A DNA stretch of 64,000 nt from an uncultured Pseudomonadota bacterium (GTDB taxonomy: Bacteria; Oederibacteriota; Muellerivitia; Muellerivitales; Muellerivitaceae): contig CAWJKT010000013.1 in assembly GCA_963843375.1 (NCBI GenBank), forward strand, positions 32,610 to 96,609, written 5' to 3'. Of this stretch, positions 8,692 to 64,000 are shown piece after piece (position 1 is the first letter of the stretch; each line of letters begins with the position of its first letter). Made by a program: the position numbers and the translations under genes. Below the pieces are notes generated by a model, which saw only the letters and a program-made list of their open reading frames with translations, was not told the DNA's origin and did no database searches.

Positions 8692-8705
8692 CCCATCCTC
8701 GCACT

Positions 8706-12806: not shown

Positions 12807-12901
12807 TGCATTCATGGGCTAAAACAGACCGACTGGACCGGAAATCCCTTTGCTTCCGGGATTTAGCGCTTCACTGATAGGATTTTAAAACTTCAGAAGT
12901 A

Positions 12902-13345: not shown

Positions 13346-13352
13346 TTCGCCC

Positions 13353-13794: not shown

Positions 13795-13795
13795 A

Positions 13796-14125: not shown

Positions 14126-14208
14126 GGCACCCTCCGTGTCATATGTTAAAGATAATGGTTTTAAAAGAAAAAGGTTACGCCCACCAGGAATCTTTATATC
14201 TTTCGGTA

Positions 14209-14237
14209 AGTTTAGGTACCCCCCTACCGGGTGTCAA
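14209..14237 (-). promoter_or_regulatory. Sigma-70 promoter of the trx cluster with a CsoR/RcnR-like operator in the spacer
   Basis: TTGACA-N17-TAAACT; spacer CCCGGTAGGGGGGTACC. Confidence 0.6.
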
Positions 14238-14320
14238 GGGACGACCACGAGGATACTCGAAGGCATGACCCGACGTGATATTCCGTTAACACTTCATGGA
14301 ACACCTCATCCAAGGTGCTT

Positions 14321-27400: not shown

Positions 27401-29322
27401 CAACCCACATAAGTCATTCCTGTCGGCACAACATCGGTCAATTGCGTATTCACCACCGCGTCGTCCGTGAAAAGCATCAAGTTCCCATAATTATCCTGAG
27501 CCGAGGTAGAGTCTAACTGCCATCCCTGCTCCCATAGCCCACCCGGACAGGTCAAATCCGAGGACGGGAGACTACACGATGTGCTTTGAACCAGGGTATT
27601 GGTTCCCTTCAGGTACAAGTCCATGGTGATGTTGTAGCCAGCGCCGGTTTCCTGCACCGTGGCGACCATGGTGTACCATTGGCCGGCTACCGGCGCGGTT
27701 CCGGTTTTGGTGACGCAGGGCCAACTCGCCCCGGCGGCTCCGTTATTAACTTGCAGGAAAATATAACCCGGGTTGGGATCCAGCGACATCCCGGCCATAA
27801 GGGCATAGGTCACCCCTCCGCTCACCTGGTAGGCAAGCACCATAGTGGCGTCCCCTCCCGCACTTGAACCAGCGGCTCCCGACGCTCCCGCCGGAATTTC
27901 CATGTCCCCTTCCACCGTGAAGGCCGTGCCAGAGCACAAGCTCACGCCCCCACTGTTGCGGATCAGCAGGGGAAAATCTGTTCCGGTTGTACTATAACAA
28001 GCCGTAGGCATATTCCCGCCAAGGTAGTTATTCCCGTCCGGCCCTTGAACCACCGTGTAACCGGCTCCAGTGGCATCAGCGGAACAATTACAGCCACCAG
28101 AACCACACGCTTCAAACGTATAGCCCGCTCCGCCCATTCCCTCAATGCTGCCATCCGAGGTGTTGGCCGAATCATTGTCGTAAGAATCGTACCATTGCAG
28201 GCTTTCCCCATTGATGTTGTAGGTGAGGGTATAGGTCTCATCTTGTCCTGGAGCCAAAACCGCCGAGGACTGGGCCTTAAGAAGCTGGAATCCCCCTCCA
28301 TTCACCGTGGCCTTGGCTGTATTGGTGGAGGAGGAGGTGCCCCCAGCCGGGTTGACAGTCGCTTGGTTGGAGATGACAGTGCCGTTGGCCGTTCCGGCGT
28401 TCACTTGCACCAGCATCCAAACCTGGCCCGTTTGATTTTTTCCGTTGCCGGGAATTGTCCAGACCACGGGGCCCGCCCCTGACGCATACTCCGAGGGGCC
28501 GTCCGACACCAGAGTCGTATTCGCCGGAATCGGGTCGCTGATGGTGTTGTTGCCTGTCGTGGCATCGAAATCGTAATTGATCGAGAAAAGAATATAATCG
28601 CCGGGCGCTGCGCTGGCGCCGTCGGCAATGTTCCCGTTCACCGTCTTAACTGCCGTTCCAGTGGGTGTGCTGGAATTGGGGATCGTGACGCAAGCTTCTT
28701 CCGTTACACCTGCGGTGCTGCAATTCAACACATTGGCCGCTTCCACGGCCGTGAAACAGTAAGTCACCCCATAGGTATCGGCCGGCAATTCATAGTAATA
28801 GTCCTGTGTGATGGTCAAACACTGGCTTGTGCCAGTCCATGCCGGGGTGGCTCCCGGCGTCGGAGTCGCCAATTCGGGGATTGATACCCCCGCTTGACCC
28901 CCATCACTATCCCAGGGAATCGTATCACTCCCATTTTGATTGACCCCGTTTACGTCCGCCAAAAAGTATTGCCCTGCGGTCGCGATATTGCAGCTTTCAA
29001 TGGATGCCGCACCGCTATTGTTGACGGCCAACATCAAAGAAGTGTATTCATAAAAATCCGAATTGCAGTAACTGACGGCGATCGTAACCGTTTGGCCCGG
29101 AACCGGATTAGGGGGGGTAATGGTTAGGGATATCGGGGTAACAACATCCTGGGCTGACGCGAAAGAAACAAAAAGCATCCACAAAATCACCCCAAAAGCC
29201 ACTCGGCATCTGCCCAATAAACTAAGCCACGAGGAGATGACCCGGGTTGGAAGAGCTCGGGTTACGCATGTAAAAGGCAGCTTGATTTGTTTGGTTTTAA
29301 AGAAAGGGGTTTCAAATATCAA
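24484..29322 (-). CDS. Giant exported protein: DUF11 domains, Thr-Pro stalk, three FlgD-Ig-like C-terminal repeats (two indels near 3' end)
   Basis: 1541-aa ORF. Manual reading past indels at about 24712 and 24590 gives ...[12 protein letters not shown]...[15 protein letters not shown]...KTIKLVILH* ending at 24484. Confidence 0.85.
25790..27170 (-). repeat. (Thr-X)n low-complexity stalk
   Basis: About 460 aa of TPTNT-type repeats. Confidence 0.9.
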
Positions 29323-46625: not shown

Positions 46626-46735
46626 GATCACGAATACACGAAGATTGCGAAGAATGGCAAAAAAAATACTTAATTAGGGTTAAAAATCCAAACTTTATCT
46701 TTGCTTTTCTTGGGGCACCTTGCGCCATCGTGGTT
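46626..46735. repeat. Second degenerate palindromic element
   Basis: GATCACGAATACACGAAG...ATCGTGGTT, similar to the 44744 copy. Confidence 0.45.
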
Positions 46736-48101
46736 AATAAGATTTTTCATTCCCGGTAGCCAGATTGATGCTTTTTGAAATCACTTCGATCAAAAAGCCC
46801 AAATCTTTTTTTGTGATCGCCAATGGCGGCATCAGAACGATCACATTCCCCAGGGGCCGCAATAAGACTCCCCGTTTTTTCGCTTCGGCACAAACCCGAA
46901 ATCCTATTTTCATCGAATAAGGATAGGGTTCGTTGGTTTTCTTGTTTTTAATTAGCTCAATTCCTCCCATCAAACCCCTCAACCGGACTTCGGATACATG
47001 GGAGTGAGCGACCAATGGTTCCAACAATTCTTGAAGCATTTCGCACTTCTCCTGAACCGACTTGAGGAACCCTCTTTTTCCAATCAATTGAAGATTGGCC
47101 AATGCCGCCGCGCATCCCAATTGGTTCCCGGTGAAAGTATGTCCATGGTAAAAAGTCCTGGCGGATTCAAATGTTCCCAGGAAAGCCTTGTAAACCTTCT
47201 CGGTGGCCAGGGTGGCCGCCAAGGGCAAATACCCTCCCGTCAGGTTCTTCGCCACACAAAGGATATCGGGGCTCACCCCCTCTTGATCGCAGGCGAACAT
47301 CGTTCCCGTCCGCCCAAATCCGGTCGCCACCTCATCCAATATCAAGAGCACCTGATAGCGGTCGCACAAACGGCGAATGGCCTTGAGGTAACCCCAAGGG
47401 TGCACCAGCATCCCCCCCGCCCCTTCGATTAAGGGTTCCATGTGAACCGCCGCCAAGCGGGAACCATATTTTCGAAAAAAGCTTTCGGCTTCCCGGACAC
47501 AATCCTGAAGCCACTTGGCATTGGAAACCTTCCGGCTGGCATATTGGTGAGGGCTTTTAACTTTGATGGTCTTAAAAAGAAGGGGCCCAAATATCCCATG
47601 GAACAAATCAATCCCGCCCAAGCTGACCGACCCCACCGTATCCCCGTGATACCCTTCTCTAATTGTCAGGAAAAGTTTCTTTTTTCGGAGTGGGGGCTTC
47701 ACCTGTTGCCAATATTGGAAAGCCATCTTCATAGCGATTTCATTGGCTTCGGAACCGGAGTCGGAATAGAAAACCCGGGTCAGTCCCTGGGGCGCCAGTT
47801 TCACCAGCTTTTCAGCCAACAAAATGGCGGGTTCGTTCGAAGCGCCCAGCATGGTCGAATGGGCGATTTTCTTGATTTGTTTTTGGATAGCTCGATCGAT
47901 TTCGGGAACCTGGTGCCCATGGACGTTACACCAAAGGGAAGAGACGCCGTCCAAATACTTATTACCTTTCGCATCGTAAAGGCAGATGCCCTTACCCTTG
48001 GTTATGATGGATATATCTTGGTCCAATTCCCATTCTTGTTGCTGGGTAAAGGGATGCCAGAGATATTTTTTGTCTTTTTGAGAAAGTTTTTGGTTATTCA
48101 T
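46734..48101 (-). CDS. bioA: Adenosylmethionine--8-amino-7-oxononanoate transaminase
   Basis: WHPFTQ, SSLWCNVHG, SDSGS, YHGDT, DEVATGFGRTG, RPLGN. Confidence 0.96.
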   Translation of the reverse strand: MNNQKLSQKDKKYLWHPFTQQQEWELDQDISIITKGKGICLYDAKGNKYLDGVSSLWCNVHGHQVPEIDRAIQKQIKKIAHSTMLGASNEPAILLAEKLVKLAPQGLTRVFYSDSGSEANEIAMKMAFQYWQQVKPPLRKKKLFLTIREGYHGDTVGSVSLGGIDLFHGIFGPLLFKTIKVKSPHQYASRKVSNAKWLQDCVREAESFFRKYGSRLAAVHMEPLIEGAGGMLVHPWGYLKAIRRLCDRYQVLLILDEVATGFGRTGTMFACDQEGVSPDILCVAKNLTGGYLPLAATLATEKVYKAFLGTFESARTFYHGHTFTGNQLGCAAALANLQLIGKRGFLKSVQEKCEMLQELLEPLVAHSHVSEVRLRGLMGGIELIKNKKTNEPYPYSMKIGFRVCAEAKKRGVLLRPLGNVIVLMPPLAITKKDLGFLIEVISKSINLATGNEKSY

Positions 48102-48180: not shown

Positions 48181-48585
48181 ATGAGCAGGCCCAATTTACC
48201 AAAATACCAAGAAATTCCATCGATCATCTTCCATTTTTATTTTCAGGACCAACCGGATGGATTACCATATTTTCCAATTCGCACCAACTTAAAGGGGTTT
48301 GTAGTGGAGAATTTGGAGATCATCCAAAAATTAACGACCGTCATTCAAGCAAATGTAACGCGGCATTTTGGCCATATGCGCCCAACGGAAAAAGGGCTAG
48401 ACACCGTCCGCAAATATGCTCAAGAGCAACTAGACCTTTATTTAAAAGGAATGATCTCAGAATCAAAGGAACTGCAACAAAGGTGGCGGGGCGGCCACCC
48501 CCTCATCATTCTTGCTCGCGTAAGCCGCAAGACCCGGGAATATGAGATCGTCATCACCACCAAGGACAACCCCAAAGGGCTTTAA
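48181..48585 (+). CDS. Hypothetical protein
   Basis: 134-aa ORF filling the bioD-bioA gap on the opposite strand. Confidence 0.55.
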   Translation: MSRPNLPKYQEIPSIIFHFYFQDQPDGLPYFPIRTNLKGFVVENLEIIQKLTTVIQANVTRHFGHMRPTEKGLDTVRKYAQEQLDLYLKGMISESKELQQRWRGGHPLIILARVSRKTREYEIVITTKDNPKGL

Positions 48586-48687: not shown

Positions 48688-49377
48688 TCAAACCGGCAAG
48701 CCAAGTTTGGCGATGTCTTGGGCGAGGAGGTCCAAGTCCTTGGGATATTGGGGGTCGTACTTCAGGGGACCAAAGACAGCTACCCTTAAAAGTTTCTTCA
48801 GGGCCTTCACGTTGGTTTGTTCCGCTATTCCCTTGCCGGTATAACCGTTCACCAGTACCCCCAAAAGTTTAATTTTGCGCCTTTCAAGGGCTTCAACCGT
48901 CAGCAATGTGTGATTAAGCGTTCCCAACCCCGCCCGGGCCACCACCAGAACCGGCAATTTCCACTTCACCATCCAATCAGTCACAAAGAAGTTTTGGGTG
49001 ATGGGAACACGAACACCCCCTACCCCCTCCACAATGAGGCAATCCCAGGCTGCTTTTCCCTTCTGGTAGACTTTTTCGACTTGGAGTAGATTGATGGGCC
49101 CCTCTTCCCATCCAGCCACCCAAGGGGCCAGAGGTTGTTTGTAATGAAACGGGACAATGTTGCGATAAGCCGAATCCGGAAATTTCGCCGCTCTTTGAAG
49201 AAGCTTCCCATCCTCGCTAATGGTTCCACCAGAGGCAACGGGCTTGAAAACCCCCACGGAGACACCCCGATTCGCGAGCATCCTTGTCAATCCTGCGGCG
49301 ACCAGGGTTTTGCCCACGCCGGTGTCAGTTCCAGTGACGAATAAACCGTTTTTCAAAGCCGACTCCTTAAAACTCAT
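48688..49377 (-). CDS. bioD: Dethiobiotin synthase
   Basis: TGTDTGVGKT, KPVASG, EGVGG, LGTLNHTLLT. Confidence 0.96.
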   Translation of the reverse strand: MSFKESALKNGLFVTGTDTGVGKTLVAAGLTRMLANRGVSVGVFKPVASGGTISEDGKLLQRAAKFPDSAYRNIVPFHYKQPLAPWVAGWEEGPINLLQVEKVYQKGKAAWDCLIVEGVGGVRVPITQNFFVTDWMVKWKLPVLVVARAGLGTLNHTLLTVEALERRKIKLLGVLVNGYTGKGIAEQTNVKALKKLLRVAVFGPLKYDPQYPKDLDLLAQDIAKLGLPV

Positions 49378-49442
49378 AACCAGGGGTTCCCCCAATCGCA
49401 AATCGTGCCTATGGGTTCTTTTCCTTGAAAGGACCAATAAAC

Positions 49443-50597
49443 CTAAAGTTTTTTAAAGGCATCAAACAGTTTTTCGATATCCATATCCGTATGGGCCGCC
49501 GAAACCGATAGCCTTAAGCGGGCCGTGCCCTTGGGCACCGTGGGTGGGCGGATGGCGACAACCAGAATTCCTTCTTCCAACAGCTTATCGGACATCTTCA
49601 CCGCTTCCTCATTTTCCCCCACGATGATCGGCATTATAGGCCCGGCACCTCGGGGAATGTCATAACCCAAAGCCCTCAAACCATCCCGGATTTTCTTGGC
49701 GTTGTCCCAAAGCTTCTCCACTCTTTGAGGTTCCTGTTGTAAAACTTCCAATGCTCCAAGCGATGCCCCGCAGGCGGCGGGGGGCAAGCCGGTGGTATAA
49801 ATGAAAGTCCGGGCCTTATTTAAAAGATACTCAATGAAAATCTGGGGACCACAGACAAATCCGCCAACGCTTCCCAGCGCCTTGCTATAAGTACCCATGA
49901 CCACAGCCGGAAAATGCTTCAAGGGAAAATGATGAGTTCCGCCTTGGCCTCCCTCACCCAATACCCCGGTTCCATGGGCATCGTCCACCATGACCAAAGC
50001 ATCATAATCATGGGCTAGGTTGGTGATTTTAAGAAGCGGGGCCAAATCCCCATCCATACTGAAAAGGGATTCGGTAACGATCAAACGACGGCGGTATTCA
50101 CCCGCCCTTTCCATTTGTTTCTTGAGATCATCCAGATTGAGATGTTCGTAAATCAGGAGCTTGGCCTTGGACAAGCGGCAGGCATCGATCAGGCTAGCAT
50201 GGTTCAAACGGTCGCAAAGAATGACGTCTTCATCCCCCACCATTACCGAAACGGTCGCCAAATTGGCCATATAACCCGTCGGGAAAGACAAACAAGCCTC
50301 CGACCCTTTAAAGAGGGCCGTGATTTCCTCCAACTGCATATGTATAGGAAAATGCCCCGAGACCAACCGGGAAGCCTGGGCCCCCGCGCCGAACCTCAAA
50401 AGGGCCTTTTGGGAGCGTTCCAAAACCTTCGGATGATCGGCCAGCCCCAGGTAATTGTTGGTACAAAAGAGGACGCAATCCTTGTGATTGACGGATGCTC
50501 TCATGCCACCCAGATAATCCACCACGCGAAGACGCCGTCGCATGCCTTCGTGGTCCAAGATGTGAAGTTCTTCGTGTATGTCATCAATCCAACTCAA
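49443..50597 (-). CDS. bioF: 8-amino-7-oxononanoate synthase
   Basis: NNYLGL, TGYMAN, DRLNHASL, FSMDGD, DDAH, TYSKA, IRPPTVP. Confidence 0.96.
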   Translation of the reverse strand: MSWIDDIHEELHILDHEGMRRRLRVVDYLGGMRASVNHKDCVLFCTNNYLGLADHPKVLERSQKALLRFGAGAQASRLVSGHFPIHMQLEEITALFKGSEACLSFPTGYMANLATVSVMVGDEDVILCDRLNHASLIDACRLSKAKLLIYEHLNLDDLKKQMERAGEYRRRLIVTESLFSMDGDLAPLLKITNLAHDYDALVMVDDAHGTGVLGEGGQGGTHHFPLKHFPAVVMGTYSKALGSVGGFVCGPQIFIEYLLNKARTFIYTTGLPPAACGASLGALEVLQQEPQRVEKLWDNAKKIRDGLRALGYDIPRGAGPIMPIIVGENEEAVKMSDKLLEEGILVVAIRPPTVPKGTARLRLSVSAAHTDMDIEKLFDAFKKL

Positions 50598-50642
50598 GAA
50601 AACCTTCTTTCGAACATAATGTTAATCAAGAAGAGGGCTCAA

Positions 50643-51821
50643 TCATAATTTTGAAAAAATAACGGCCCCCAATTGTCCTCCAAAACCATAAGACAGCGAC
50701 ATCACGTGATCCACCTTTAACTTCATCCCGCCTTTTTTCACGTGGCGAATTTGGCATTCAGGGTCGGGATTTTCCAAGTTACGTGTTTCGGGCAGTTCTC
50801 CTTTGGTTAAAGCCATGATGGATAAAACCGCCTCAACGCTTCCAGCCGCCCCCAACAAGTGGCCCGTCGCCCCCTTGGTTGAACTAACCCAAGTATCGGA
50901 GTTTCCAAACACCTTCGTCAAAGCCATGGATTCCACCCGATCATTCAAAATCGTGCCAGTGCCATGGGCGTTAATATAGCCGATATCGGAGGGTTTCAAT
51001 CCCGCCTTACGAAGGGTTCTATCAATTACCGCCGCAATGGAATTTCCACGAGGTTCCATTTCCAACATGGCCGTCGCATCCGCGCCCAAGGCCCACCCCG
51101 ATACCTTGGCAAGAATAGGGACCATACGCTTTTTGGCGGTCTTTTCCCTTTCTAAAATCAATACCGCCGATCCCTCACCCATTAAAAAGCCATCCCGGGT
51201 GGAGTCAAAGGGTGAAGGGCCTTCCGGTTTGCGGGTAAAGATTCCCATGTTCTGGAAACCGGCGTAAATAAGCGGATGAATGGAGGCTTCGGTGCTTCCC
51301 ACGATGACCGCGTCGCATTCCCCATCTTCCAAAAGTCGGGCGCCCATGACTAGGCTTCCCAACCCCGTGGAGCAGGCCGACGCAACTGAAAGAGCGGGAC
51401 CGCTAAATCCAAAACACTCGGCAAGTAATTGCCCGCCAGCATGGGGAAAGAATTCACTGAGAAAATCCCATTTGACAGCGGGGTCCAACCCCACTTGTAA
51501 AAGACTTAGGACTCCACCCTTGCTGGAAGAAAAAGTGGTGGCAATTCGGGTCGGAGGAACCCGGAACAATCCGGCGTTGTCCCAGGCTTCCTGGGCGGCG
51601 ATCACACCCAACTGGAGGGAACGATCACACCGGATTAAAGTTTGGGGAATCCAAGCTTCCAAAGCCTGCGCAACACGGGGACGATCAAAATTTTCCCACT
51701 CCTTGCCCTTTAAAGTCCCAAAAACAACCCGACCCTCCATCAGGGACTTCCATGTCCATTGAGAATTTGCCCCCAAGGGCGTCGTCATTCCATACCCAGT
51801 CACAACAATGGAATCATTCAT
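50643..51821 (-). CDS. Divergent beta-ketoacyl-ACP synthase (FabF-like)
   Basis: SACSTG, GEG, NAHGTGT..ND, KGATGHLLGA, SYGFGG. Confidence 0.9.
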   Translation of the reverse strand: MNDSIVVTGYGMTTPLGANSQWTWKSLMEGRVVFGTLKGKEWENFDRPRVAQALEAWIPQTLIRCDRSLQLGVIAAQEAWDNAGLFRVPPTRIATTFSSSKGGVLSLLQVGLDPAVKWDFLSEFFPHAGGQLLAECFGFSGPALSVASACSTGLGSLVMGARLLEDGECDAVIVGSTEASIHPLIYAGFQNMGIFTRKPEGPSPFDSTRDGFLMGEGSAVLILEREKTAKKRMVPILAKVSGWALGADATAMLEMEPRGNSIAAVIDRTLRKAGLKPSDIGYINAHGTGTILNDRVESMALTKVFGNSDTWVSSTKGATGHLLGAAGSVEAVLSIMALTKGELPETRNLENPDPECQIRHVKKGGMKLKVDHVMSLSYGFGGQLGAVIFSKL

Positions 51822-51870
51822 TATTATTTTTTATCAAGAACTCAAAATTCAAAACTTAAAGCTGCCTTTC

Positions 51871-52620
51871 CTAGAGCCAACCCGGCAAACGCGAATCCAG
51901 GTTAAACACCTGCCCCGAAATCGTCTGGGTACCGGCCAGCCAAACCGTGAATTCCGCCACTTCGTTTAAATCCGCGGTTTTTCCCAAGAGATGATGGTTT
52001 CGTATGTTTTCCTCCGCCTCAAGTGAAAGCCCCTGCGCGATGCGAGTTTTATGAAAGCCGGGACAAAGTACGTTGGAGCGGATGTTTTTTCCGCCATATT
52101 CCCTGGCCAAACTGCGGGCTAGGCCGATGATTCCCGCTTTGGCAGCCGTGTAGCTTCCTTGCCCAATATTGCCGGTCGTCGCCACCACCGAGGAAACAAA
52201 AATAAAGTGGCCATTTTTTTGTTTGAGCATTGGCCTGAGGCAGGCTTTGGAAAGCAGAAAGGCCCCCTTCAAATGGACTCCCAGGGTGGCATCCCATTGG
52301 GCTTCCTCCACGTTGAGAAGGCGGGCGTTCCAAGTGGCTCCCGCATTGTGGATAACGCAGTCCAAGACGCCATGTTTTTCCATCGTGGACTGGGTCAGAC
52401 TGGAAACTTCGTTTTCGATGGAAACATCGCACTTGGAAATAAAAAATCGGGAGGTGAGAGAAGAAAGTTCCTTCGCGGCTTGGGAGGCGGATTCTTCATC
52501 CTGATGGTAACAGGTGCTGACTGCCCATCCCTTTTGGGCAAAGGCCTTGCAAAGGGCAAGCCCAATCCCACGGGTTCCACCTGTCACCAAGACAGACTGC
52601 ATCAGGAAATCCCTTCCCAT
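51871..52620 (-). CDS. 3-oxoacyl-ACP reductase-like SDR (FabG-like)
   Basis: TGGTRGIG, NAG, SS, GQGSYTAAKAG. Confidence 0.9.
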   Translation of the reverse strand: MGRDFLMQSVLVTGGTRGIGLALCKAFAQKGWAVSTCYHQDEESASQAAKELSSLTSRFFISKCDVSIENEVSSLTQSTMEKHGVLDCVIHNAGATWNARLLNVEEAQWDATLGVHLKGAFLLSKACLRPMLKQKNGHFIFVSSVVATTGNIGQGSYTAAKAGIIGLARSLAREYGGKNIRSNVLCPGFHKTRIAQGLSLEAEENIRNHHLLGKTADLNEVAEFTVWLAGTQTISGQVFNLDSRLPGWL

Positions 52621-52673: not shown

Positions 52674-53027
52674 TTAATCCGTCGGCGACAAAATGTCGGT
52701 GAACCAATCCGCAAAGGCGAGGACGCTCACTAAAAGAAGGACAAAAAACACGACCAAGGGAAATATCACCCAAACAAGAAAGGCGATGAGTAGACAATTC
52801 CGGCCAACTTTTCGAATTTCCTGGGAGTCCTGATCATACAGTAAAAGGGCGACCAGCATGCCCGAGAAAGGGATAAAAAGTGAAAGGAGATACCAAACCC
52901 AACGATAGGAAAGAACCATATCTTGCCCCAGCGGGGGTGCTTCCACGGCAACAGAGACGGTCCCTCGGGAAGAAGGCGCTGCGGAGCGGGAAGCTCTCTG
53001 GCGAGATAAGGGAGGATGGGTTTTCAT
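52674..53027 (-). CDS. Small membrane protein
   Basis: Hydrophobic segments; ATGA overlap with upstream gene. Confidence 0.65.
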   Translation of the reverse strand: MKTHPPLSRQRASRSAAPSSRGTVSVAVEAPPLGQDMVLSYRWVWYLLSLFIPFSGMLVALLLYDQDSQEIRKVGRNCLLIAFLVWVIFPLVVFFVLLLVSVLAFADWFTDILSPTD

Positions 53028-53554
53028 TTAAACACCTTGAACATGAAGATCACGAATCCCGTTAATACCGCGACGAGCGAAAAAGGCAAACCCACGTAAA
53101 TTCCTGCTGTCCACCGGGAGCAGCGCAGGACTTTCTCGATCCCGACCACCTGAAAAACGAAGGTGGCTAGGGCCAGCCACTTACCCAATCCATACCCCAA
53201 TCCGAAAAGCGTGAGCCCAGCCACGGAATAAGCCACTATTTGCCGAACCGGTTCCAATGGCAAGACTTCCCCCAACATATAAGCGCAGAGCTTCATGAAA
53301 CCTGACCAAAGATAAATCCAGGCGTTCACGAAAAAGGGCATTCCCAACAGCATCACCAGGGTTACAAGAGCCACATTGGTGACAGAACCGCCAGAAAATA
53401 TCTCAGCAATTCCCAATTCCAAGGCCACCAGGATGCCGGTAATATTGGCGAAACGGAACGCTTTGTTTTCGCCGTCGGCATCATAATTCTCGCGGAAAAA
53501 CTCGGAGGGCCGGGACCACAAAAACCCTAAATCCCTAAAGTATTCTTGGACCAT
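53024..53554 (-). CDS. YIP1-like membrane protein
   Basis: SRPSEFF N-terminal motif, about five TM segments, VAYS. Confidence 0.7.
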   Translation of the reverse strand: MVQEYFRDLGFLWSRPSEFFRENYDADGENKAFRFANITGILVALELGIAEIFSGGSVTNVALVTLVMLLGMPFFVNAWIYLWSGFMKLCAYMLGEVLPLEPVRQIVAYSVAGLTLFGLGYGLGKWLALATFVFQVVGIEKVLRCSRWTAGIYVGLPFSLVAVLTGFVIFMFKVFK

Positions 53555-53610
53555 GGTGGCTAGAGTTTAGCACAACCTCGGATTCAAGTGTCACCCCCAA
53601 CAGGTGCCGA

Positions 53611-53646
53611 AAACAAAAAAGCCCGGGAAGTTTTCTTCCCGGGCTT
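53611..53646 (-). terminator. Rho-independent terminator
   Basis: GCCCGGGAAG-TTTT-CTTCCCGGGC with a T-run on the minus strand. Confidence 0.85.
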
Positions 53647-53661
53647 CGCTTTAAAAACCGC

Positions 53662-54084
53662 TTATTCCTCCAGCCGCTCAATGGCCTCGTCCCAAGCCTC
53701 ATCCATTGAAACCACTTCACCTTCATTGATGACTTCCACCAAAAGCTTCTTCAACTTGGACGCCAGGGTCACTTCCATGTCGTTTTCTTTCAGCACTTCC
53801 CGGACATCGTCCATCGTCAAGCTTTCCAGCACGTCTTCCGCTTCAGCCTGAAACAGCTTCTGCCGCTCGACCTGTTCGACAGACTTGTCCTTCTCCTCAT
53901 CTTCATCGTCGTCGTCATCCACATCGTCGTCGTCTTCCTCTTCTTCGGCCTTGTCTAAATCAATGATGTCTTCGTCATCCTCATCATCCTCGTCATCATC
54001 CTCAACGGTTTTCTCATCGTCCATTTCATCGTCGTCTTTGATTTCTTCATCTTCTTCGTGACCACGCTTGCGGGCCAAGGGCAT
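53662..54084 (-). CDS. Highly acidic hypothetical protein
   Basis: AAGGAGG RBS; D/E-rich N-half and helical C-half; terminator downstream. Confidence 0.8.
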   Translation of the reverse strand: MPLARKRGHEEDEEIKDDDEMDDEKTVEDDDEDDEDDEDIIDLDKAEEEEDDDDVDDDDDEDEEKDKSVEQVERQKLFQAEAEDVLESLTMDDVREVLKENDMEVTLASKLKKLLVEVINEGEVVSMDEAWDEAIERLEE

Positions 54085-54194: not shown

Positions 54195-55943
54195 TCAAAG
54201 ATGGCGGCGGAGGTTTTCCCATGTGTTCCGATCAACCAGTTCCACGTTGGAAAAGCGGGCCAGGGCCCGGGCGTCCATAGCGTAGTCGGCGGGAACCATC
54301 AATATGCCCCTGTAACAAAATTCCGATCTCATGACATGGCTCATTTCGCTGACCAGTTCACCCGGCACCCTTTCCCCCGCCGGAAACTGCCTTCCCATCA
54401 CGCAGAACTTGCCGCCCGTGATGGGATGGGGGAATTCGGCCACCGCCACCACCGCCCCCCCCGGCACTCGCCGGATTTTTTCCAAACGGAAACCCATGCT
54501 TTTCAAAAACAAATCCACTTCCCTTTCGAAGTTCAAAAGCGGCATTTTGCTCAAATCCGTAACCACGCCCTTCTCATCCACTACCCGGAAAGTCCACCGT
54601 CCGTCGAAGTGGGGGCCTTGGATCAACTCGGTCAATTTCACCCCATCCACCAGGTCCACCGCCATCTTACGGGAGATATTCTTGGCCTCCTCGGTAAAAC
54701 GGCCGGTAACAATATAGATACCCCTTTTGCAGGCTTCTTCCCGCGTCACCTCGTCCAATTCGCGGATCAAATCGGCGTGAACCGGAGCAGTCTCGGGATA
54801 TTGCCGGGCCAACACCAGGAAACTCCCGCCCACCACCGGATGGGAGAAATCCGCCTGGATTTGGAGAGTTCCACCGGGAACTTTTTTGACTTTTTGGACT
54901 TCAAAACTCATCTTGGCCAGAACGCTTAAAGCCAAGTCCTGGAATTGGGCAAGGGGCATGGAGCTGAATTCTTTTCCCCGAAGGGTCTCCTGGATGACCT
55001 CGGGTTCTTCCATCTCCTTGGGCTTTTCCCATCCGTCCTCAACCTTGGTTTTGGCCGATTCGTACCGCACGTCCAGCCTGGGAGCGTTTTCCTTGAGGCG
55101 TTCGATGAGTCTGGCTGTCTTACTTTCCTCCTCGGGCATGGGTTTCACTTCCATTCCGTCGTTATAGCGCAGATCAAACGAAGTGAGGACTTTAAAGGGC
55201 GGGTACTTCTTTAGCATGGTGTGTTCGTAGACGTCCCTTTGGGCCTTCACGCTCAAAACGTGGCCGTCATAATATTTGGCTTTACCGCTGATGAAATTCA
55301 TCATCCCGTCCACGATGGCGACGGTAATGTTTTCGGAGAGGGAAAAAACAACCTCGAGGATATGAAGAGTATCCTGGAAAAGAGTATCCCGGAAAAGCTC
55401 ATAGTTCTTATCCACTTGGCCGCCTAATTCGGTGTTAAAACGCCTTACCATGAAACGAACTCTCGGGATCATATCCACCATATGGACCGTTTTGATTTCG
55501 ATTTCGGGGTATTTCCCGGTGAGATAAAAGCGGAGGATTTCCTCGATGTTTCCCATAGCCCCACGCTTTAAATATTCCCTTTTTTCCTCGATTCTGTGCC
55601 TTTCCATCTGGATCTTTTTCTTTTTTTCTGCAGTTCGCGAATTCACCAGCCGGATGATTTGGAAGAGAATGGCTAAAAGCATCATGGTCCCAAAAATGGC
55701 GACCCCGATGGCTTCATTCGGATTTTTGTCACAATAGCGCAATATATCCCGGTAGAAACCCCGAACACTTCCGATAATGAAAGAGTTGAAAATAATGATC
55801 GTCAAAAAAAGAACCAACCCGCCCATTGCCAGCGCGCCCGCATCGGCCTCTTCTTCGGTATGACCTTTATGAACGAGGTGGTTCTTGAAGTGTTTGACCC
55901 CGGGCAGTCGCAGAAGTCTTTTAGTCCATGACGGTAATGGCAT
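54195..55943 (-). CDS. Membrane-anchored protein with two Mrr-like restriction-endonuclease-fold domains
   Basis: Two TM segments; twice F...L..MxF...PGG, followed by GIYIVTGRFTEEA..VDLVDG and GILMV..VELVD. Confidence 0.75.
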   Translation of the reverse strand: MPLPSWTKRLLRLPGVKHFKNHLVHKGHTEEEADAGALAMGGLVLFLTIIIFNSFIIGSVRGFYRDILRYCDKNPNEAIGVAIFGTMMLLAILFQIIRLVNSRTAEKKKKIQMERHRIEEKREYLKRGAMGNIEEILRFYLTGKYPEIEIKTVHMVDMIPRVRFMVRRFNTELGGQVDKNYELFRDTLFQDTLHILEVVFSLSENITVAIVDGMMNFISGKAKYYDGHVLSVKAQRDVYEHTMLKKYPPFKVLTSFDLRYNDGMEVKPMPEEESKTARLIERLKENAPRLDVRYESAKTKVEDGWEKPKEMEEPEVIQETLRGKEFSSMPLAQFQDLALSVLAKMSFEVQKVKKVPGGTLQIQADFSHPVVGGSFLVLARQYPETAPVHADLIRELDEVTREEACKRGIYIVTGRFTEEAKNISRKMAVDLVDGVKLTELIQGPHFDGRWTFRVVDEKGVVTDLSKMPLLNFEREVDLFLKSMGFRLEKIRRVPGGAVVAVAEFPHPITGGKFCVMGRQFPAGERVPGELVSEMSHVMRSEFCYRGILMVPADYAMDARALARFSNVELVDRNTWENLRRHL

Positions 55944-57401: not shown

Positions 57402-58118
57402 TTACGCCTTTTGGGGATGATTTGAGGGCATTTCGTTGTTTTTATTTCGAGGAAGAAACAGAAATACGCCCATATGCGCGAATCCCAAAATAAGCAAGGC
57501 GATCCGAAGGCCCATTTCCCCAAAAAAAGAAAGGCCGCCTAAAAATCCAATCACCCCTATCACTCGACCCAAACCCAGGGGCACTTCCCGAATAGCCAGG
57601 TATTCAATCTTGCTGGAGGAGGCTTCCCTGGCTTTTTCCAGGATCGTAAAGGAAAAAGCTCCAAAAACCACTTGCCCCCAGGTTCCACCTGTGGCAACCA
57701 AAAGCGCGTACAGAAGAAAAGTGAAATAATTGATTTTGACAAAAAGTCCCACGAAGGACAATCCCAACAGCCAGGACGAAATCCAAAGGCCTTGCCAACG
57801 GTTGCCAGCCTTGGCCCAAAGGGAAAGTGCGTAAGTGGTTAAAACTCCTTGGAAATTTACCAGCATGCTGTAGCCACCCACAACCGCCTCATTGAGGGAA
57901 AAGCGATAAACCAGAAGAGGCACCACAAACCAAAAGACCCCGCCCCGCAAACCCAAAAGGAACTGAGCGATCATCAATCGGTTCCAATCCTCGTTCTTTT
58001 TAAAAGTAAGAACCTTCCAGAAATAGAATACCTTTTGGGTCGATCTGGCATGAAATTGGAAACTTTTGAGGGTGAGAACCAGGTAAAGAACCAGCGCGAT
58101 GGCGAAAACCAGGTAATC
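57402..58118 (-). CDS. MFS transporter, C-terminal half (5'-truncated at junction)
   Basis: Frame open from about 58118 (YLVFAIALVLY...) through six TM segments and EYLAIRE..GRVIG. Confidence 0.7.
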   Translation of the reverse strand, partial: DYLVFAIALVLYLVLTLKSFQFHARSTQKVFYFWKVLTFKKNEDWNRLMIAQFLLGLRGGVFWFVVPLLVYRFSLNEAVVGGYSMLVNFQGVLTTYALSLWAKAGNRWQGLWISSWLLGLSFVGLFVKINYFTFLLYALLVATGGTWGQVVFGAFSFTILEKAREASSSKIEYLAIREVPLGLGRVIGVIGFLGGLSFFGEMGLRIALLILGFAHMGVFLFLPRNKNNEMPSNHPQKA

Positions 58119-58119
58119 C

Positions 58120-58366
58120 GGCCGAGGCCGAAGTGATATTTCATCGAAAGGATTGCCGCGAGATAGGCGCCGACGCTGAAATAGGCCGCCTGGCCGAGCG
58201 AGGCGAGACCGACAAAGCCGAGCAGGATATCCACGCTCATCGCCAGGATCGCGAACACCAGCGCCCGCGTCGCCAACAGCACCACGAACGACGTGGAATG
58301 CGGAATGATCACCGCAAGCGCAAGCAGAACGGCGGCGACGGCAATAATGTTGGCGCGCTGGCTCAT
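58120..58366 (-). CDS. livM: Branched-chain amino acid ABC permease LivM, 5' fragment
   Basis: [27 protein letters not shown]. Confidence 0.8.
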
Positions 58367-58373
58367 CGGCCGG

Positions 58374-58466
58374 TCACTCGCGCCCGAACAGGCCGGTGGG
58401 CTTGATCGCCAGGATCAGCACCATCGGCGCATAGAGCGTGAAATAGGCAAGTTCCGGAAACAGAAT
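58374..58466 (-). CDS. livH: Branched-chain amino acid ABC permease LivH, 3' fragment
   Basis: [30 protein letters not shown]. Confidence 0.75.
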
Positions 58467-59228
58467 CGCAAGACGGTAACCCAGATGGATTTTGAAACCT
58501 CCAAGGACAAAGTCCTGATGGGGCCGGAACGCAAGTCGATGATCCTGTCGGAGAGCGAAAAGAAGAACACGGCTTATCACGAGGCCGGACACGCTCTGGT
58601 GGCCGCCAATATCCCTGAATCCGATCCCTTGCACAAGGTCACCATCATTCCGCGTGGTTGGGCGCTGGGGCTGACGCAGCAACTTCCCCTCGACGACAAG
58701 CACACCTATACCCGCGAGTATCTGGAGGCCCAGCTTGCCGTGTTGATGGGCGGACGCGTGGCCGAAGAACTCTTTCTGCACCACATGACCACCGGCGCGG
58801 GAAACGATATCGAGCGTGCTACTCACATCGCCCGCGATATGGTGTGCGAATTCGGCATGTCGAACCTCGGTCCGCTGGCGTTTGGCAAGAACCAGCAGGA
58901 AATTTTCCTGGGACGCGACATCGCCACCCAGCGTGACTTTAGTGAAGACACAGCAATCAAAATCGACCAGGAAGTTAAAACCTTTGTAACTACGGGTTAC
59001 GAGCGGGCCAAAAATATTCTGACCGGCAACCGCGACGTTCTTGTCCGCATTGCCGAAGCCTTGCTCGAGCGCGAGGTTCTGGACGCCGGCGAAATGAAAC
59101 TCCTGATCGAAGGTAAGCCCCTGCCGGAATTCGTGCGCGTGAAGCCCTTGCCTCCTGCTCCCGAAACCGTGCAGGTGCTCAAGCCGCAGCCCACGTCGCC
59201 TTCGATGCCGCGCCCCCAACCGGCCTGA
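58461..59228 (+). CDS. ftsH: FtsH protease, C-terminal fragment
   Basis: [49 protein letters not shown] domain missing. Confidence 0.93.
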
Positions 59229-59242
59229 GGGCGGGAAGATCA

Positions 59243-59367
59243 GAAGCTGGAAACTCGAAATTAGAAACTGGAAACTGGAAAATCGAAAATCGGCATGAGT
59301 TTCGAATTTCGATTTTCCAGTTTCTAGTTTCCGACTCTCCCGTTTCGAGTTTCGAGCTCCCAGTTTC
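59243..59367. repeat. Palindromic heptamer array (GAAACTC-like units followed by inverted units)
   Basis: Seven forward heptamers, 5-nt spacer, then GAGTTTC/CAGTTTC units. Confidence 0.85.
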
Positions 59368-59465
59368 TACTGCCCCTTCCCTTCTTTTCCTACGCAAATC
59401 TCTGCCCGCCGCACTATACTCTTGGGAATCTTGCCGGCTGTTGAAAACGATTGCGGAGGCTCAGG

Positions 59466-60182
59466 ATGAGTACGTTCATGGCGGAGCTTGTGGGCACGAT
59501 GCTGTTGATCGTTCTGGGTGATGGAGTTGTCGCCGCGGTGGTCCTGAATAAAACCAAAGCCCAGAACTCCGGCTGGATGGTCATCACCACGGGCTGGGCG
59601 CTGGCGGTAGCGATGCCAGTCTATGCGGTAGGCCGCATCAGCGGCGCGCACCTGAATCCTGCCATCACCCTGGGTTTGGCGATCACCGGCAAGTTCGCGT
59701 GGGGCTCCGTTCCCAGCTATCTGGCGGCGCAATTCCTGGGAGCTTTCTTGGGAGCGATTGTCGTATGGCTCGCCTATCTTGCGCATTGGCCCGTGACGGA
59801 GGATCGCAGCGCGAAGCTCATCGTTTTCTCCACCGCCCCGGCCATTCGCAACTTGCCACTGAATCTGGTCACCGAAATCATTGGAACGTTCGTCCTGATG
59901 TTTGGCGTGCTCGCGATCGGCGCGAACTCTGCCCCCACGCAGAGTGGTCTCGCTCCGCTGCTCGTGGGCTTTCTCGTTTGGTCGATCGGATTGTCGCTGG
60001 GGGCCCCAACCGGTTACGCCATCAATCCCGCGCGCGACCTGGGACCGCGCATCGCCCATGCGCTGTTGCCCATTTCCGGCAAGGGGGGCTCCGACTGGAG
60101 CTACTCCTGGGTGCCGATCGTGGGCCCAGTCATCGGCGGCCTTCTCGGGGCGGTCGCCTACGTACGGATCTTCGGTTCCTGA
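59466..60182 (+). CDS. glpF: MIP family glycerol facilitator
   Basis: SGAHLNPA, GYAINPARD. Confidence 0.93.
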   Translation: MSTFMAELVGTMLLIVLGDGVVAAVVLNKTKAQNSGWMVITTGWALAVAMPVYAVGRISGAHLNPAITLGLAITGKFAWGSVPSYLAAQFLGAFLGAIVVWLAYLAHWPVTEDRSAKLIVFSTAPAIRNLPLNLVTEIIGTFVLMFGVLAIGANSAPTQSGLAPLLVGFLVWSIGLSLGAPTGYAINPARDLGPRIAHALLPISGKGGSDWSYSWVPIVGPVIGGLLGAVAYVRIFGS

Positions 60183-60185
60183 GTC

Positions 60186-61160
60186 ATGAGCTTCCGTCCT
60201 CAATTTCGAATCGAGATCGGCGGCCGCAAGGTTACGATAGGCGCCCGCACCCTCGTGATGGGCGTGCTCAATGTCACCCCCGATTCCTTCTCTGACGGCG
60301 GGCGTTACTACGTCCCGGATCGCGCGATCCAGCATGGTGTGGACCTCGCCGGCCAGGGAGCTGACTGGATTGACGTAGGCGGCGAGTCCACACGGCCGGG
60401 TGCGCAGCCGGTGACTGCCGACGAAGAGCTTCGCCGCGTCCTGCCCGTCATCCGCGCGCTGCGGAGCAAACTGCCTCGAGTCCCGATCTCCATTGACACC
60501 ACCAAAGCGCAGGTAGCCGAACGGGCCCTCGGCGCCGGTGCGAGCATTTTGAACGATGTCAGTGGACTGCGGTTTGATCTCCGACTTGCCGAACTTGCGT
60601 GCCGGTACCGCGTGCCGCTCGTCCTGATGCACTCGCGCCACAATCCCGAAACAATGCAGCGCAAGCCTTTCGTGCGCGACATCTGGCGCTCGCTCACGAG
60701 CGGACTTGAAGCATCGATTCGGCGGGCGCTCGCGGCCGGAGTTGCGAGCACGCAGCTTATTCTCGATCCCGGCCTGGGCTTCGGGAAGTCGCGCCGCCAA
60801 AACTTCGAAATCCTCGCCAGCCTTCGGAAACTTCAGCGCTTCCACCTTCCCCTTCTCATTGGCGCCTCGCGCAAATCGTTCGTGCAAGCCGTCGTTTCGG
60901 GCGAAGGGCTCGATCCTTCGCGAGCGCCTCGTCCCGGCCTTCGCTATTGGCCGATCGCGAGGTCCCATGGCAATCTTTCAAAATCCCGCCGCGAAGCGAA
61001 CCAAGAGAGCATTGCGCTCCTCCCGATGGGCGACGCAGCCGCGGTGGTCGCTGCAATTCTGAATGGAGCGCACATCGTTCGCGTGCATGACCCGGGCGCG
61101 ATCCTCCCTGCGGTCCGCGTTGCCGACGCCTTGCTCGTCGCCATTAATCGTCATCCATAG
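60186..61160 (+). CDS. folP: Dihydropteroate synthase
   Basis: NVTPDSFSDGG, GESTRPG, DPGLGF, SRKS, VRVHD. Confidence 0.95.
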   Translation: MSFRPQFRIEIGGRKVTIGARTLVMGVLNVTPDSFSDGGRYYVPDRAIQHGVDLAGQGADWIDVGGESTRPGAQPVTADEELRRVLPVIRALRSKLPRVPISIDTTKAQVAERALGAGASILNDVSGLRFDLRLAELACRYRVPLVLMHSRHNPETMQRKPFVRDIWRSLTSGLEASIRRALAAGVASTQLILDPGLGFGKSRRQNFEILASLRKLQRFHLPLLIGASRKSFVQAVVSGEGLDPSRAPRPGLRYWPIARSHGNLSKSRREANQESIALLPMGDAAAVVAAILNGAHIVRVHDPGAILPAVRVADALLVAINRHP

Positions 61161-61202
61161 CTCAACTTTCCGTCCGTGCCGATGGTCGAGTATCATTCCG
61201 AT

Positions 61203-63176
61203 ATGCGCCTGGCGCGATGCTCTCGACTGCTGTCTATTTTCTTCCTGGCCGCCTTGCTGGTTTGGCCGACGCGAGTGGCAGCGGCGAGCCCGCAGCGAAT
61301 GGCTTCGGGAACCGGAGGACCTCCGCCGGTTATCCTCATTTCCGTCGACACCCTGCGCGCCGACCATCTGAGTTGCTACGGTTACTCGCGCCTTGAAACC
61401 CCGCACATCGACTCGCTCGTGCACGGTGGCACGCTTTTCGAAGAGATCAGCAGTCAAGTGCCTATCACCTTGCCCTCGCACGTATCGCTCTTTACCTCCA
61501 CCTACGCCTTTGCGAATGGCGTTCGCGAGAATGCCGAAGTCCTGGTGCCTGGAGCCGCGACGCTCGCGACAGTTCTCGCCGCCCATGGCTACAGCACGGC
61601 GGCTTTCATTGGAGGATTTTCTCTCGATCGCCGCTACGGTTTGGCACAGGGGTTTGGAACCTACGACAGTCCGTTCGACTCGCGCGTTATCAAGGGCGCT
61701 CTCGATCTGAAGCGGCCCGCACCCCAAGTGCTGAATGCCGCGGAAGGTTGGCTTGAGAAGAATTCCGGCCACCCCTTTCTGCTCTTCGTCCATCTATTTG
61801 ATCTTCACCAGCCCTACGACCCACCCGCCGCCTACAGCACCCGCGCCCCGCAGAGCGAGTACGACCAGGAACTGGCTTACGTGGACGACTCGCTGGGGGG
61901 CTTGTTCGATTTCCTCGCGAAGTTGGGATTGGACCGCCGCGCACTTGTCGTGCTCTTTTCCGATCACGGTGAAAGCCTGGGGGAGCACGGCGAAAACACG
62001 CACGGGTATTTCATTTATCGCAGCACGGTGCACGTACCGCTCATCTTCCATTGGCCGCGGGCGGAGGAAAGCGGAAGTTCGAAGCTCGAAACTCGAAACT
62101 CGACACGAGCTTCGAGTTTCCAGTTTCGCGTTTCGGCCCCCGCCGGGCTGATCGATGTTGCTCCGACGATCTTGAGCTTTCTAGGAATTCCAGCTCCCGC
62201 GAGCTTTTGTGGTCACAGCCTTTTGGACCTCGCCAAGGGCGGAGATTCCCCGCCGCGCGACGTTTACAGCGAAAGCTCCTACGCGCACGACAAGTTTGGG
62301 TGGGCTGCGCTGAGCAGCCTGCGGCAGGGAAACTACCAATACATCGACGCTCCGCGCCCCGAGCTTTATGACTTGAAGCGTGATCCCGCTGAACTACACA
62401 ATCTCTTGCCGGCTCAAACGGCCCTGGCCGCATCTTTCCGTGAGCGATTGGCGGCGTTTGTGGCGACTTTTCATTCCGCACCAGGCTTGCGCCGTCAAAA
62501 GTCTGCTCCCGTCGCTAAGGAATCTGCCGAGAGTTTGCGCTCGCTCGGATACCTGGAGGTCACCTCGCCCAAAGCCGCTCTCGACAATTCCGGCGTTGAT
62601 CCGAAGGACCGTATTTTTGAGTACAAACGTTATCTGCTCGCGGAGCATCTTGGCCGCACCGGTAAGGCGGATGAGGCGATCGCGGAATATCGGGCCATCC
62701 TTGCCGACGATCCGCGCAATCTTCCGGCCTCTATCGATCTGGCCCGCTTGGATGCCGAGTTGCATCGCTACATGGACGGCGCGAATCAACTCGAGGCAGC
62801 GCTTGGCCTCGATCCGCACAATATCGAGGCTGCGGAAATGCTCGGTGACATCTGGCTGACCGTTGGCGATTCCGGGCGCGCCGCAGCGGAGTTTCAACAC
62901 CTTCTCACCTTCGCGCCAGATGCCTACGAGGCGCATTTCGGATTGGGGCTCCTCGCCGCCCGCCGGCACGACGCTGCCAAAGCCTCGGAGCACTTTCGCG
63001 CCGCGCTCGCCGCGAACCCGCTTTCCGCCGAGGCGCATTACCAACTGGGCTTGATCCTGGAAGGGCAACATCAGAAGGATGCTGCGGTGCGCGAGTTCAA
63101 AGCGGCACTCCAAAACGATCCCCAGTTCCAAGATGCGCGGCGTGAGCTTTCCCGGCTGACCTCGCCCGTGCAGTGA
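61203..63176 (+). CDS. Sulfatase/alkaline-phosphatase-superfamily hydrolase with C-terminal TPRs
   Basis: DTLRADH, TLPSH, DLHQPY, SDHGE, ELYDL..DP.E, then TPRs. Confidence 0.9.
   Translation: MRLARCSRLLSIFFLAALLVWPTRVAAASPQRMASGTGGPPPVILISVDTLRADHLSCYGYSRLETPHIDSLVHGGTLFEEISSQVPITLPSHVSLFTSTYAFANGVRENAEVLVPGAATLATVLAAHGYSTAAFIGGFSLDRRYGLAQGFGTYDSPFDSRVIKGALDLKRPAPQVLNAAEGWLEKNSGHPFLLFVHLFDLHQPYDPPAAYSTRAPQSEYDQELAYVDDSLGGLFDFLAKLGLDRRALVVLFSDHGESLGEHGENTHGYFIYRSTVHVPLIFHWPRAEESGSSKLETRNSTRASSFQFRVSAPAGLIDVAPTILSFLGIPAPASFCGHSLLDLAKGGDSPPRDVYSESSYAHDKFGWAALSSLRQGNYQYIDAPRPELYDLKRDPAELHNLLPAQTALAASFRERLAAFVATFHSAPGLRRQKSAPVAKESAESLRSLGYLEVTSPKAALDNSGVDPKDRIFEYKRYLLAEHLGRTGKADEAIAEYRAILADDPRNLPASIDLARLDAELHRYMDGANQLEAALGLDPHNIEAAEMLGDIWLTVGDSGRAAAEFQHLLTFAPDAYEAHFGLGLLAARRHDAAKASEHFRAALAANPLSAEAHYQLGLILEGQHQKDAAVREFKAALQNDPQFQDARRELSRLTSPVQ
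62074..62134. repeat. Palindromic heptamer element inside the CDS
   Basis: Four heptamers, GACAC spacer, four inverted heptamers. Confidence 0.8.
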
Positions 63177-63352
63177 TCTTCGCCCCGACGCCAGCACGGA
63201 ACAATCCCCAGCCCGGGATGTCATCCCGACTTTCGGTTACCGCCACTCGGGAACCCCCGGGCGATTAGAGGGCTAGCGGTAGTTTACTGCGAAGGCGCTA
63301 AAAACAGCGGGATGTAGTTGGATTCTCATGGGGTTACCCTGAGAGGGTTGTA

Positions 63353-64000
63353 TTACCCACGTGCGGTCGTAGCGAGTTGTTGCAAGCCCAAGGTTTCGGT
63401 CAGGCCTTTTTGGATAAGGCTCTGGGTGGAGAGCACGGTGGCGGTGCGATAAGGACCGGCGCCTTGGGCGGGATACAACAGGACGAACTGCTGAATTTGT
63501 TCCAACTCTTTCTGCAGCTCTTCGATGGTGATCGAGGGCCAGAAGGCCTGGGCCTGGCGGTGCACGTAGTGCAGCAGGGACAGGCCCAGCAGGCAGTAGA
63601 AGGCGTGCACGCGGATTTTGCTATCGGTCCAGTGATACAGCGGTTGCCAATTCAGCCAGTCGCCTTCCTTGAGGCCGCGAAAAACTCTTTCAATCTGCTG
63701 CTGCCCGGCGTAGGCGGCCACCCCTGCTCGGGCGTCCAATCGAGGCGATTGGTGGCCAGCAGCGTGCGGCCCAGGCGATGCGTCAGCAGTTCCTGCAGGG
63801 CGGCGTGATCGACCTGAAACACCAGGCGCTTGCCGCCCGGCTCCTCGACGATCTGATAATGCACCAAGCCGGAGAGGAAGGGGGCGGCAAGCCAGCGGCT
63901 GATCTTCGCTTGCACGCCGGCTTCGGTGAGTCGATGACCGGGGCGCGCCATCTCCACTGCCAGGCGCTTGAGTGCGGCCAGCACCTTGCTCAATGAGGGC
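63353..64000 (-). mobile_element. IS1634-like (IS4 superfamily) transposase, 3' part with indel
   Basis: LLATN.LDW, Y..QQQIERVFRGLK, P.YHWTDSKIRVHAFYCLL. Possible element end near CTAG at about 63273. Confidence 0.85.

Follow-up and report, generated by a model that had tools for sequence, protein, structure and literature searches.

How is pimeloyl-acyl carrier protein (ACP) supplied to BioF in a bacterium where neither BioC nor BioW is found and where the biotin genes are accompanied instead by relatives of FabF and FabG? The question is raised by a locus from a soil bacterium of a little-known phylum, at positions 48688-52620 of a 64,000-nucleotide stretch of DNA (the window), where four consecutive open reading frames (ORFs) on the minus strand encode a short-chain dehydrogenase/reductase (SDR), a ketosynthase (KS), bioF and bioD. 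The source of pimelate is a variable and still incomplete part of the biotin pathway, with BioC-BioH, BioW/BioI, BioZ and BioE among the described routes. An initial annotation of the window had proposed that dedicated enzymes elongate a primer with a free carboxyl group, with no methyl masking, and the sequence comparisons presented here support this reading. The ketosynthase, helped by the SDR, seems somewhat more probably than otherwise to form a dedicated, BioC-independent module making pimeloyl-ACP for BioF.

One set of indications comes from the ketosynthase itself. The protein carries both ketoacyl-synthase domains (PF00109 and PF02801) and belongs to the 3-ketoacyl-ACP synthase (KAS) I/II type. 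On the fabF model TIGR03150 it scores 300.6 bits, below the equivalog cut-off of 493.75, whereas the genome's real fabF reaches 632. It is around 20 residues shorter than FabF and shares 34-38% identity with solved FabFs. The triad Cys150/His286/His321 and the active-site Lys316 are invariant in family alignments, in keeping with the initial description of a divergent ketosynthase with an intact Cys-His-His set. A signature was sought in an alignment of 26 bio-type KS and 21 rows labelled fabF; one of these rows, from locus L062, is itself of the bio type, so that 20 FabFs remain. All 26 bio-type KS have S98, S100 and K101, while the FabF columns hold Gly, Gly and one of Ile, Met or Val (once Ala). 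The KS loop therein reads SSSKGG, with Lys101, where FabF has GSGIGG, and the hydrophobic back gate is not found. Other differences are Leu376 in place of a FabF Asn (in NSFGFGG) and Gly289 in place of a FabF Ser.

In HMMER alignments to three solved FabFs, the Ile of GSGIGG is matched by K101, and Phe202 by F189. The Escherichia coli FabF numbering employed here (Ile108, Phe202) is our assumption, and fits the 413-residue chain 4r8e if the initiator Met is included. In E. coli FabF, the back gate consists of I108 and F202 and lies at approximately C7-C8 of the bound acyl chain, and the I108F substitution restricts elongation to short chains (PMC9006962). Because the gate sits at this depth, Lys101 would be expected to lie next to the carboxylate left free on a glutaryl chain attached to Cys150 or, with some stretch, on a malonyl chain; the methyl ester of glutaryl-ACP equals a C7 acid in length (PMC9006962). 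The basic residue for which inspection of the acyl pocket had been recommended is therefore predicted to be this invariant lysine at the FabF Ile108 position.

A quick maximum-likelihood tree splits the lysine-bearing KS from all 20 FabFs, with a Shimodaira-Hasegawa-like approximate likelihood ratio test (SH-aLRT) value of 94. The side with the lysine contains 25 of the 27 bio-type rows together with three other lysine-bearing rows, and two long-branch rows (G034 and G039) stand outside both the Lys-KS and the FabF groups. Of the 120 best database matches of the window KS, 84 share the Ser-x-Ser-Lys motif, as do at least 68 of the 110 new matches obtained with a profile built from divergent members. 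Approximately 80 clusters among the KS database matches keep 46-100% identity at full length, and Lys- or Arg-bearing KS are also present among database sequences whose gene context was not seen. In the 120 listed matches of the divergent-member query, the organism names are of Elusimicrobia only, with no Desulfovibrio. A search of protein representatives with the KS profile returned only giant multi-module synthases (3484-7920 aa), and a search of a protein cluster atlas returned generic KS clusters only.

The SDR shows a comparable divergence from its housekeeping relative, scoring 206.7 bits on the FabG model TIGR01830 (cut-off 297.75) as opposed to 331.8 bits for the housekeeping fabG. Its translation holds the cofactor motif TGGTRGIG, the catalytic Ser in FVSS and the YTAAK motif. 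Residues H190, H210 and R244 of the SDR family correspond to Ile, Ile and a C-terminal Gly in 11 FabGs.

The remainder of the genome (assembly G000; 32 contigs, 80% complete) contains the ordinary fatty acid synthesis (FAS) genes as a plsX-fabH-fabD-fabG-acpP-fabF cluster on contig C3, all above curated cut-offs, so that the separate housekeeping fabF and fabG which the initial annotation had suggested looking for do exist. The FabF of this cluster pairs in the tree with the FabF of an Omnitrophota metagenome-assembled genome (MAG; L090) at an SH-aLRT of 90, which is a weak hint as to the phylum. In the 80%-complete genome a single FabA/FabZ domain has been detected, on contig C15 and above the fabZ cut-off, as well as two carrier-protein (PP-binding) genes: acpP and one whose neighbours encode a SagB-type dehydrogenase and an amino-acid adenylation protein.

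The known alternative sources of pimelate were sought in the same genome and in its relatives. The best of 20 methyltransferase matches in the window's genome scores 57.9 bits on BioC, against a cut-off of 184.95, and no BioW was found there, in a BioC/BioW search that did not extend to BioH or BioE. Across the 31 genomes of the window's family, 17 of which are at least 90% complete, none has BioW and none has BioC at E<=1e-25. BioG is missing from all five genomes searched for it, the window's among them. FabH-like genes occur as a single copy in each of the two genomes searched (G000 and the same-genus G054), the copy in G000 being that of the fab cluster, and for this reason there is no BioZ candidate in either. 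The statement that bioC, bioW and a FabH-like bioZ are missing from the window therefore extends to the whole assembly. The corresponding statement on bioI also stands for the window, with P450 genes located on contigs C1 and C10 and not on the window's contig.

Conservation of the linkage was followed through the phylum, represented in the collection by 99 species genomes. Close KS homologues (at least 47% identity) are confined to the family of the window, 24 of whose 30 other genomes have one. In 17 of the twenty family KS loci fetched, no more than 1.3 kb separates the KS from bioF; one contig ends after the KS, and the SDR is present in 18. Outside the family, the arrangement recurs as bioB-SDR-KS-bioF in G017, of another family, as SDR-KS-bioF-bioD in G034 and as KS-bioF-bioD at a contig start in G039, both of further families, and as bioB-DUF423-SDR-KS-bioF-bioD in an Elusimicrobia MAG (L062). 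The KS of these four genomes share 30-41% identity with the window KS, and the linkage, whose lack of conservation would have counted against the initial annotation, thus recurs in distant lineages. No ACP or dehydratase gene is present in the four distant operons as annotated. The Elusimicrobia locus is the one bio-type locus among 80 found with the KS alignment; the other 79 are mostly housekeeping FabF and have no context value. Genes for an aldehyde dehydrogenase and a 2-oxoadipate dioxygenase/decarboxylase-like protein (HGLS) lie in L062 at 12415-14910, 1-4 kb downstream of bioD, and could bear on a source of glutarate.

In 16 genomes of the phylum, all from three other families, a BioC-like gene gives a full-length match of at least 161 bits; one locus there (L190) has the order bioA-bioF-BioG-BioC-bioD. 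No KS match was obtained beside bioF in any of the three loci fetched from the BioC families. Further families show bio layouts with neither BioC nor KS. One of these (L179, from G004) has a 330-aa protein with weak Rossmann-type matches only, at 5892-6884 between bioB and bioF-bioD and with no bioA nearby; this we take to be a possible BioU-like replacement of BioA. Another (L182, from G001) encodes at 6986-8839 a BioF with an N-terminal extension of approximately 230-260 aa belonging to no family, and a third (L181, from G042) encodes at 6593-8509 a BioF-BioD fusion of 638 aa. In L188 (G035), a locus with no KS or BioC, proteins of 226 aa and 426 aa lacking a Pfam match are encoded at 3086-5068, directly upstream of bioF-bioD.

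From the observed gene order, family assignments, signature residues, missing rival routes and recurring linkage, we infer a free-carboxyl primer, its substrates, the number of rounds and a role for the lysine. A short dicarboxyl acyl chain would sit on Cys150 with its free omega-carboxylate bound by the invariant Lys101 and the two flanking serines, which would also close the pocket to longer chains. Malonyl-ACP, serving both as primer and as extender, would give 3-oxoglutaryl-ACP, which a reduction cycle would convert to glutaryl-ACP; a second condensation and cycle on glutaryl-ACP would then give pimeloyl-ACP. The 3-oxo reduction of these charged intermediates is assigned to the SDR, while dehydration, enoyl reduction and the carrier would be supplied by the housekeeping FabZ, enoyl reductase and AcpP, since no such genes are present at the locus. 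From pimeloyl-ACP, biotin would be completed by BioF, BioA, BioD and BioB.

A related possibility, unlikely but deserving consideration, is that the KS takes only preformed glutaryl-ACP or glutaryl-CoA, derived for instance from lysine or aromatic catabolism. A single condensation with malonyl-ACP would then yield 3-oxopimeloyl-ACP, to be reduced by the SDR and the housekeeping enzymes. The predicted depth of the lysine, at C7-C8, suits the carboxylate of a C5 chain on the cysteine better than that of a C3 chain, and such chemistry is known from BioZ, with its Ser/Arg/Ser carboxylate site. However, enzymes of the KAS I/II type normally use acyl-ACP primers, and the operons examined contain no gene for glutaryl-ACP or glutaryl-CoA synthesis and no CaiB-like transferase.

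Several observations weigh against elongation of malonyl-ACP by a dedicated KS and SDR. The locus has no dedicated ACP, dehydratase or enoyl reductase, unlike the Desulfovibrio cluster discussed below, and the placement of K101 comes from sequence alignment. The P450 genes occur in the window's genome and in a same-genus relative, and may represent a BioI-like source of pimelate. The bioB gene (C18:5649-6562) matches its family in three consecutive frames, with two apparent frameshifts; contig C18 has many other split ORFs and the P450 gene on C1 (99971-101135) is also split, which makes assembly indels likelier than pseudogenes. Among the relatives, two genomes that are both 98% complete, G064 (L045) and G073 (L046), have kept the KS while the SDR is cleanly missing, indicating that the SDR is dispensable. 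In G047 (L186) and G049 (L187), 10-20 kb have been inserted on the same strand between KS and bioF. Six family genomes have no KS: G057, G058 and G060 have no true bioF either, a joint absence that speaks for the module, and in G063 bioF lies at a contig edge, but G052 (L185; 93% complete) reads SDR-bioF-bioD-bioA with the KS cleanly missing and G044 reads bioF-bioD-bioA with neither KS nor SDR upstream, in a region that has been rearranged. Together, the two genomes without the KS and the two without the SDR oppose a strict need for either gene. G044 and G052 carry additional KS genes, but these do not qualify as displaced bio-type copies: the loops have the sequences GACVGGM and GTTMGEV, and the genes sit in other clusters. 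Finally, synteny extends over the entire 15-kb neighbourhood throughout the family, and the 17 adjacent family loci are consequently not independent evidence.

The last of these observations lends some weight to a second alternative, in which the KS-SDR pair makes a different product, either a secondary lipid or some other acyl-ACP, short or dicarboxylic, and stays linked to the bio genes owing to inherited synteny or shared regulation. The neighbourhood is indeed conserved as a block, either gene may be lost while bioF, bioD and bioA remain, and the Lys- or Arg-bearing KS of unseen context would be consistent with such a function. This explanation is nonetheless quite improbable, considering that the pair stands between bioB and bioF in both G017 and the Elusimicrobia MAG, that it is found directly before bioF in two further families with a KS identity of only about 30%, and that no other known pimelate route was found in these genomes, where BioC, BioW, a second FabH and BioG were searched for. 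That the two genes are redundant or decaying fabF/fabG paralogues with no special function is highly improbable: both score as FabF/FabG relatives below curated cut-offs and either is missing in a few relatives, but the catalytic residues are intact, and the full-length conservation (46-100%) and the signature invariant across phyla point to purifying selection on a distinct function. The production of pimeloyl-ACP by a dedicated KS, assisted by the SDR, is therefore the reading retained here.

The arrangement of the locus is summarized in Table 1. The SDR and KS genes directly precede bioF, and the gaps of roughly 50 bp given in the initial annotation are of 49 nt (SDR-KS) and 45 nt (KS-bioF), followed by 5 nt between bioF and bioD. 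Past bioD the order continues with a plus-strand ORF of 134 aa, bioA and rimO, and BioF, BioD and BioA all score above their curated NCBIfam cut-offs. The family match of bioD begins at residue 33 of the TTG-started ORF, whereas the ATG at 49377 fits this match better and may be the true start. The 134-aa ORF is found in one of the 20 related loci, that of G054, with bioA directly following bioD in most relatives, and it probably lies outside the biotin pathway.

Table 1. Features of the biotin locus and its surroundings, with positions numbered from the first nucleotide of the window.
Feature	Position	Strand	Remarks
bioA, adenosylmethionine-8-amino-7-oxononanoate transaminase	46734..48101	-	TIGR00508 529.7 bits (cut-off 405)
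134-aa ORF between bioD and bioA	48181..48585	+	no Pfam or NCBIfam match
bioD, dethiobiotin synthase	48688..49437	-	249 aa from TTG; TIGR00347 164.3 bits (cut-off 83.3)
bioF, 8-amino-7-oxononanoate synthase	49443..50597	-	384 aa; TIGR00858 461.5 bits (cut-off 426.45)
KS, clade apart from FabF, with Ser98-x-Ser100-Lys101 in the predicted acyl pocket	50643..51821	-	392 aa
SDR, FabG-like 3-oxoacyl-ACP reductase paralogue	51871..52620	-	249 aa; Pfam adh_short 8.5e-51
Two overlapping membrane-protein ORFs upstream of the SDR	52674..53554	-	176 aa and 117 aa; no family match
Terminator-like hairpin	53618..53647	-	13 pairs (8 G-C) then T-run; ends the upstream acidic-protein gene
Extremely acidic protein	53662..54084	-	140 aa; long Asp/Glu runs; kept upstream across the family
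Protein with two Mrr-type restriction-endonuclease domains	54195..55943	-	582 aa; kept upstream across the family

Relaxed Pfam scans of the 117-aa and 176-aa membrane ORFs and of the 134-aa ORF gave nothing above threshold. The membrane-protein ORFs are syntenic across the family, including in loci with no SDR, and are possibly co-transcribed with the SDR-KS-bio genes; the 117-aa protein does not resemble the DUF423 protein encoded in the Elusimicrobia operon. The hairpin is likely to mark the 5' border of the transcription unit, and since it closes the preceding gene the unit may start at 53554. Inspection by eye of positions 53555-53617 revealed no obvious operator-like palindrome. At approximately 100% identity, the stretch is also present in contigs assembled from four public runs belonging to two studies; these contigs bridge the bioD-bioF, bioF-KS and KS-SDR junctions, indicating that the gene order is not an assembly artefact. 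No RNA data set was listed as containing the stretch. At position 51384 the window has A where all four public runs have G, a synonymous difference in KS codon 146. Elsewhere in the window, very high GC skew has been recorded for the bins 26001-28000 (+0.30) and 30001-32000 (+0.40), and positions 58001-64000 have 57-63% G+C, compared with approximately 48% in the rest.

A broader proposition can be advanced only tentatively, and with less assurance than the reading of the locus itself. KS in which a lysine replaces the back-gate isoleucine, accompanied by two serines, might constitute a widespread class that, alone or with an optional reductase, turns ordinary FAS into a pimeloyl-ACP factory by using malonyl-ACP as a free-carboxylate primer. 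This would amount to a minimal, oxygen-independent fifth route, with no methyltransferase, esterase, dedicated ACP or dehydratase, present in several uncultured phyla. If true, it would explain the biotin prototrophy of many uncultured lineages that have been scored as having no pimelate route, and would provide a compact part for biotin production strains.

The closest known system in terms of gene content is that of Desulfovibrio. FAS-like genes in Desulfovibrio bio operons were predicted to make pimeloyl-CoA (Rodionov 2004; PMC545781), and transposon fitness data later showed that DVU2558-2565 and DVU1220 are needed in medium with no biotin (Trotter 2023; PMC10102598). The initial annotation's mention of fab-like genes in some deltaproteobacterial bio operons was thus correct, but was outdated with respect to this genetic work. 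In the proposal put forward in the latter study, malonyl-ACP is elongated on a specialised ACP with no methyl esters, the biochemistry being left open (PMC10102598), so that the route has genetic support without chemistry; no later work on it, and nothing on a two-gene form or on the lysine signature, was found in the literature searched. Homologues from Syntrophobacter, Desulfobacter and Desulfurispirillum are also named by Trotter (2023). Like the window locus, the Desulfovibrio vulgaris genes DVU2558-DVU2565 and DVU1220 place a FabF-like KS, DVU2563, and a FabG-like reductase among bioB, bioF, bioA and bioD. The cluster has no bioC, bioH or bioW, and in the window's genome no BioC or BioW was found, BioH not having been searched for. 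It differs in having a specialised ACP and two FabZ-like proteins and in needing a nitroreductase-like protein, none of which is encoded in or near the window operon. With no dedicated ACP and no FabZ-like genes, the window locus can be classed as a reduced variant of the Desulfovibrio-type route, a comparison made at the level of gene content. In the phylum to which a Desulfobacteraceae MAG belongs, 60 bioF loci were sampled from 121 genomes and none has a KS-like gene within approximately 4.5 kb; the KS profile run on 401 genomes of that phylum listed only FabF-length matches of at most 367 bits. Desulfovibrionia may belong to another GTDB phylum.

BioZ of alpha-proteobacteria provides the chemical precedent. 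At the bottom of its tunnel, S84, R147 and S287 have been proposed to neutralise the glutaryl carboxylate, and its keto-pimeloyl-ACP product is turned into pimeloyl-ACP by E. coli FabG, FabA and FabI (PMC8024396); by analogy, a specialised enzyme may plausibly be required for the condensation alone. Like BioZ (PMC8024396, PMC12625853), the window KS would be a FAS-derived condensing enzyme acting on a free-carboxyl primer, with two serines and one basic residue deep in the pocket and a product finished by FAS II. Nevertheless, BioZ is of the FabH type (KAS III, Cys-His-Asn) and uses glutaryl-CoA, whereas the window KS is of the FabF type with Cys-His-His. E. coli FabF has the same fold and triad as the window KS, and FabF and FabB elongate the methyl esters of malonyl- and glutaryl-ACP to the pimeloyl stage (PMC9006962). 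The BioC-BioH pathway to which these esters belong employs a methyltransferase and an esterase, neither of which is encoded at the window locus, where Gly105, Gly107 and Ile108 of E. coli FabF are replaced by Ser, Ser and Lys. Compared with the Desulfovibrio route, the window locus would represent a simpler version, consisting of one or two genes and bearing in Ser-x-Ser-Lys a clear signature that can be mutated.

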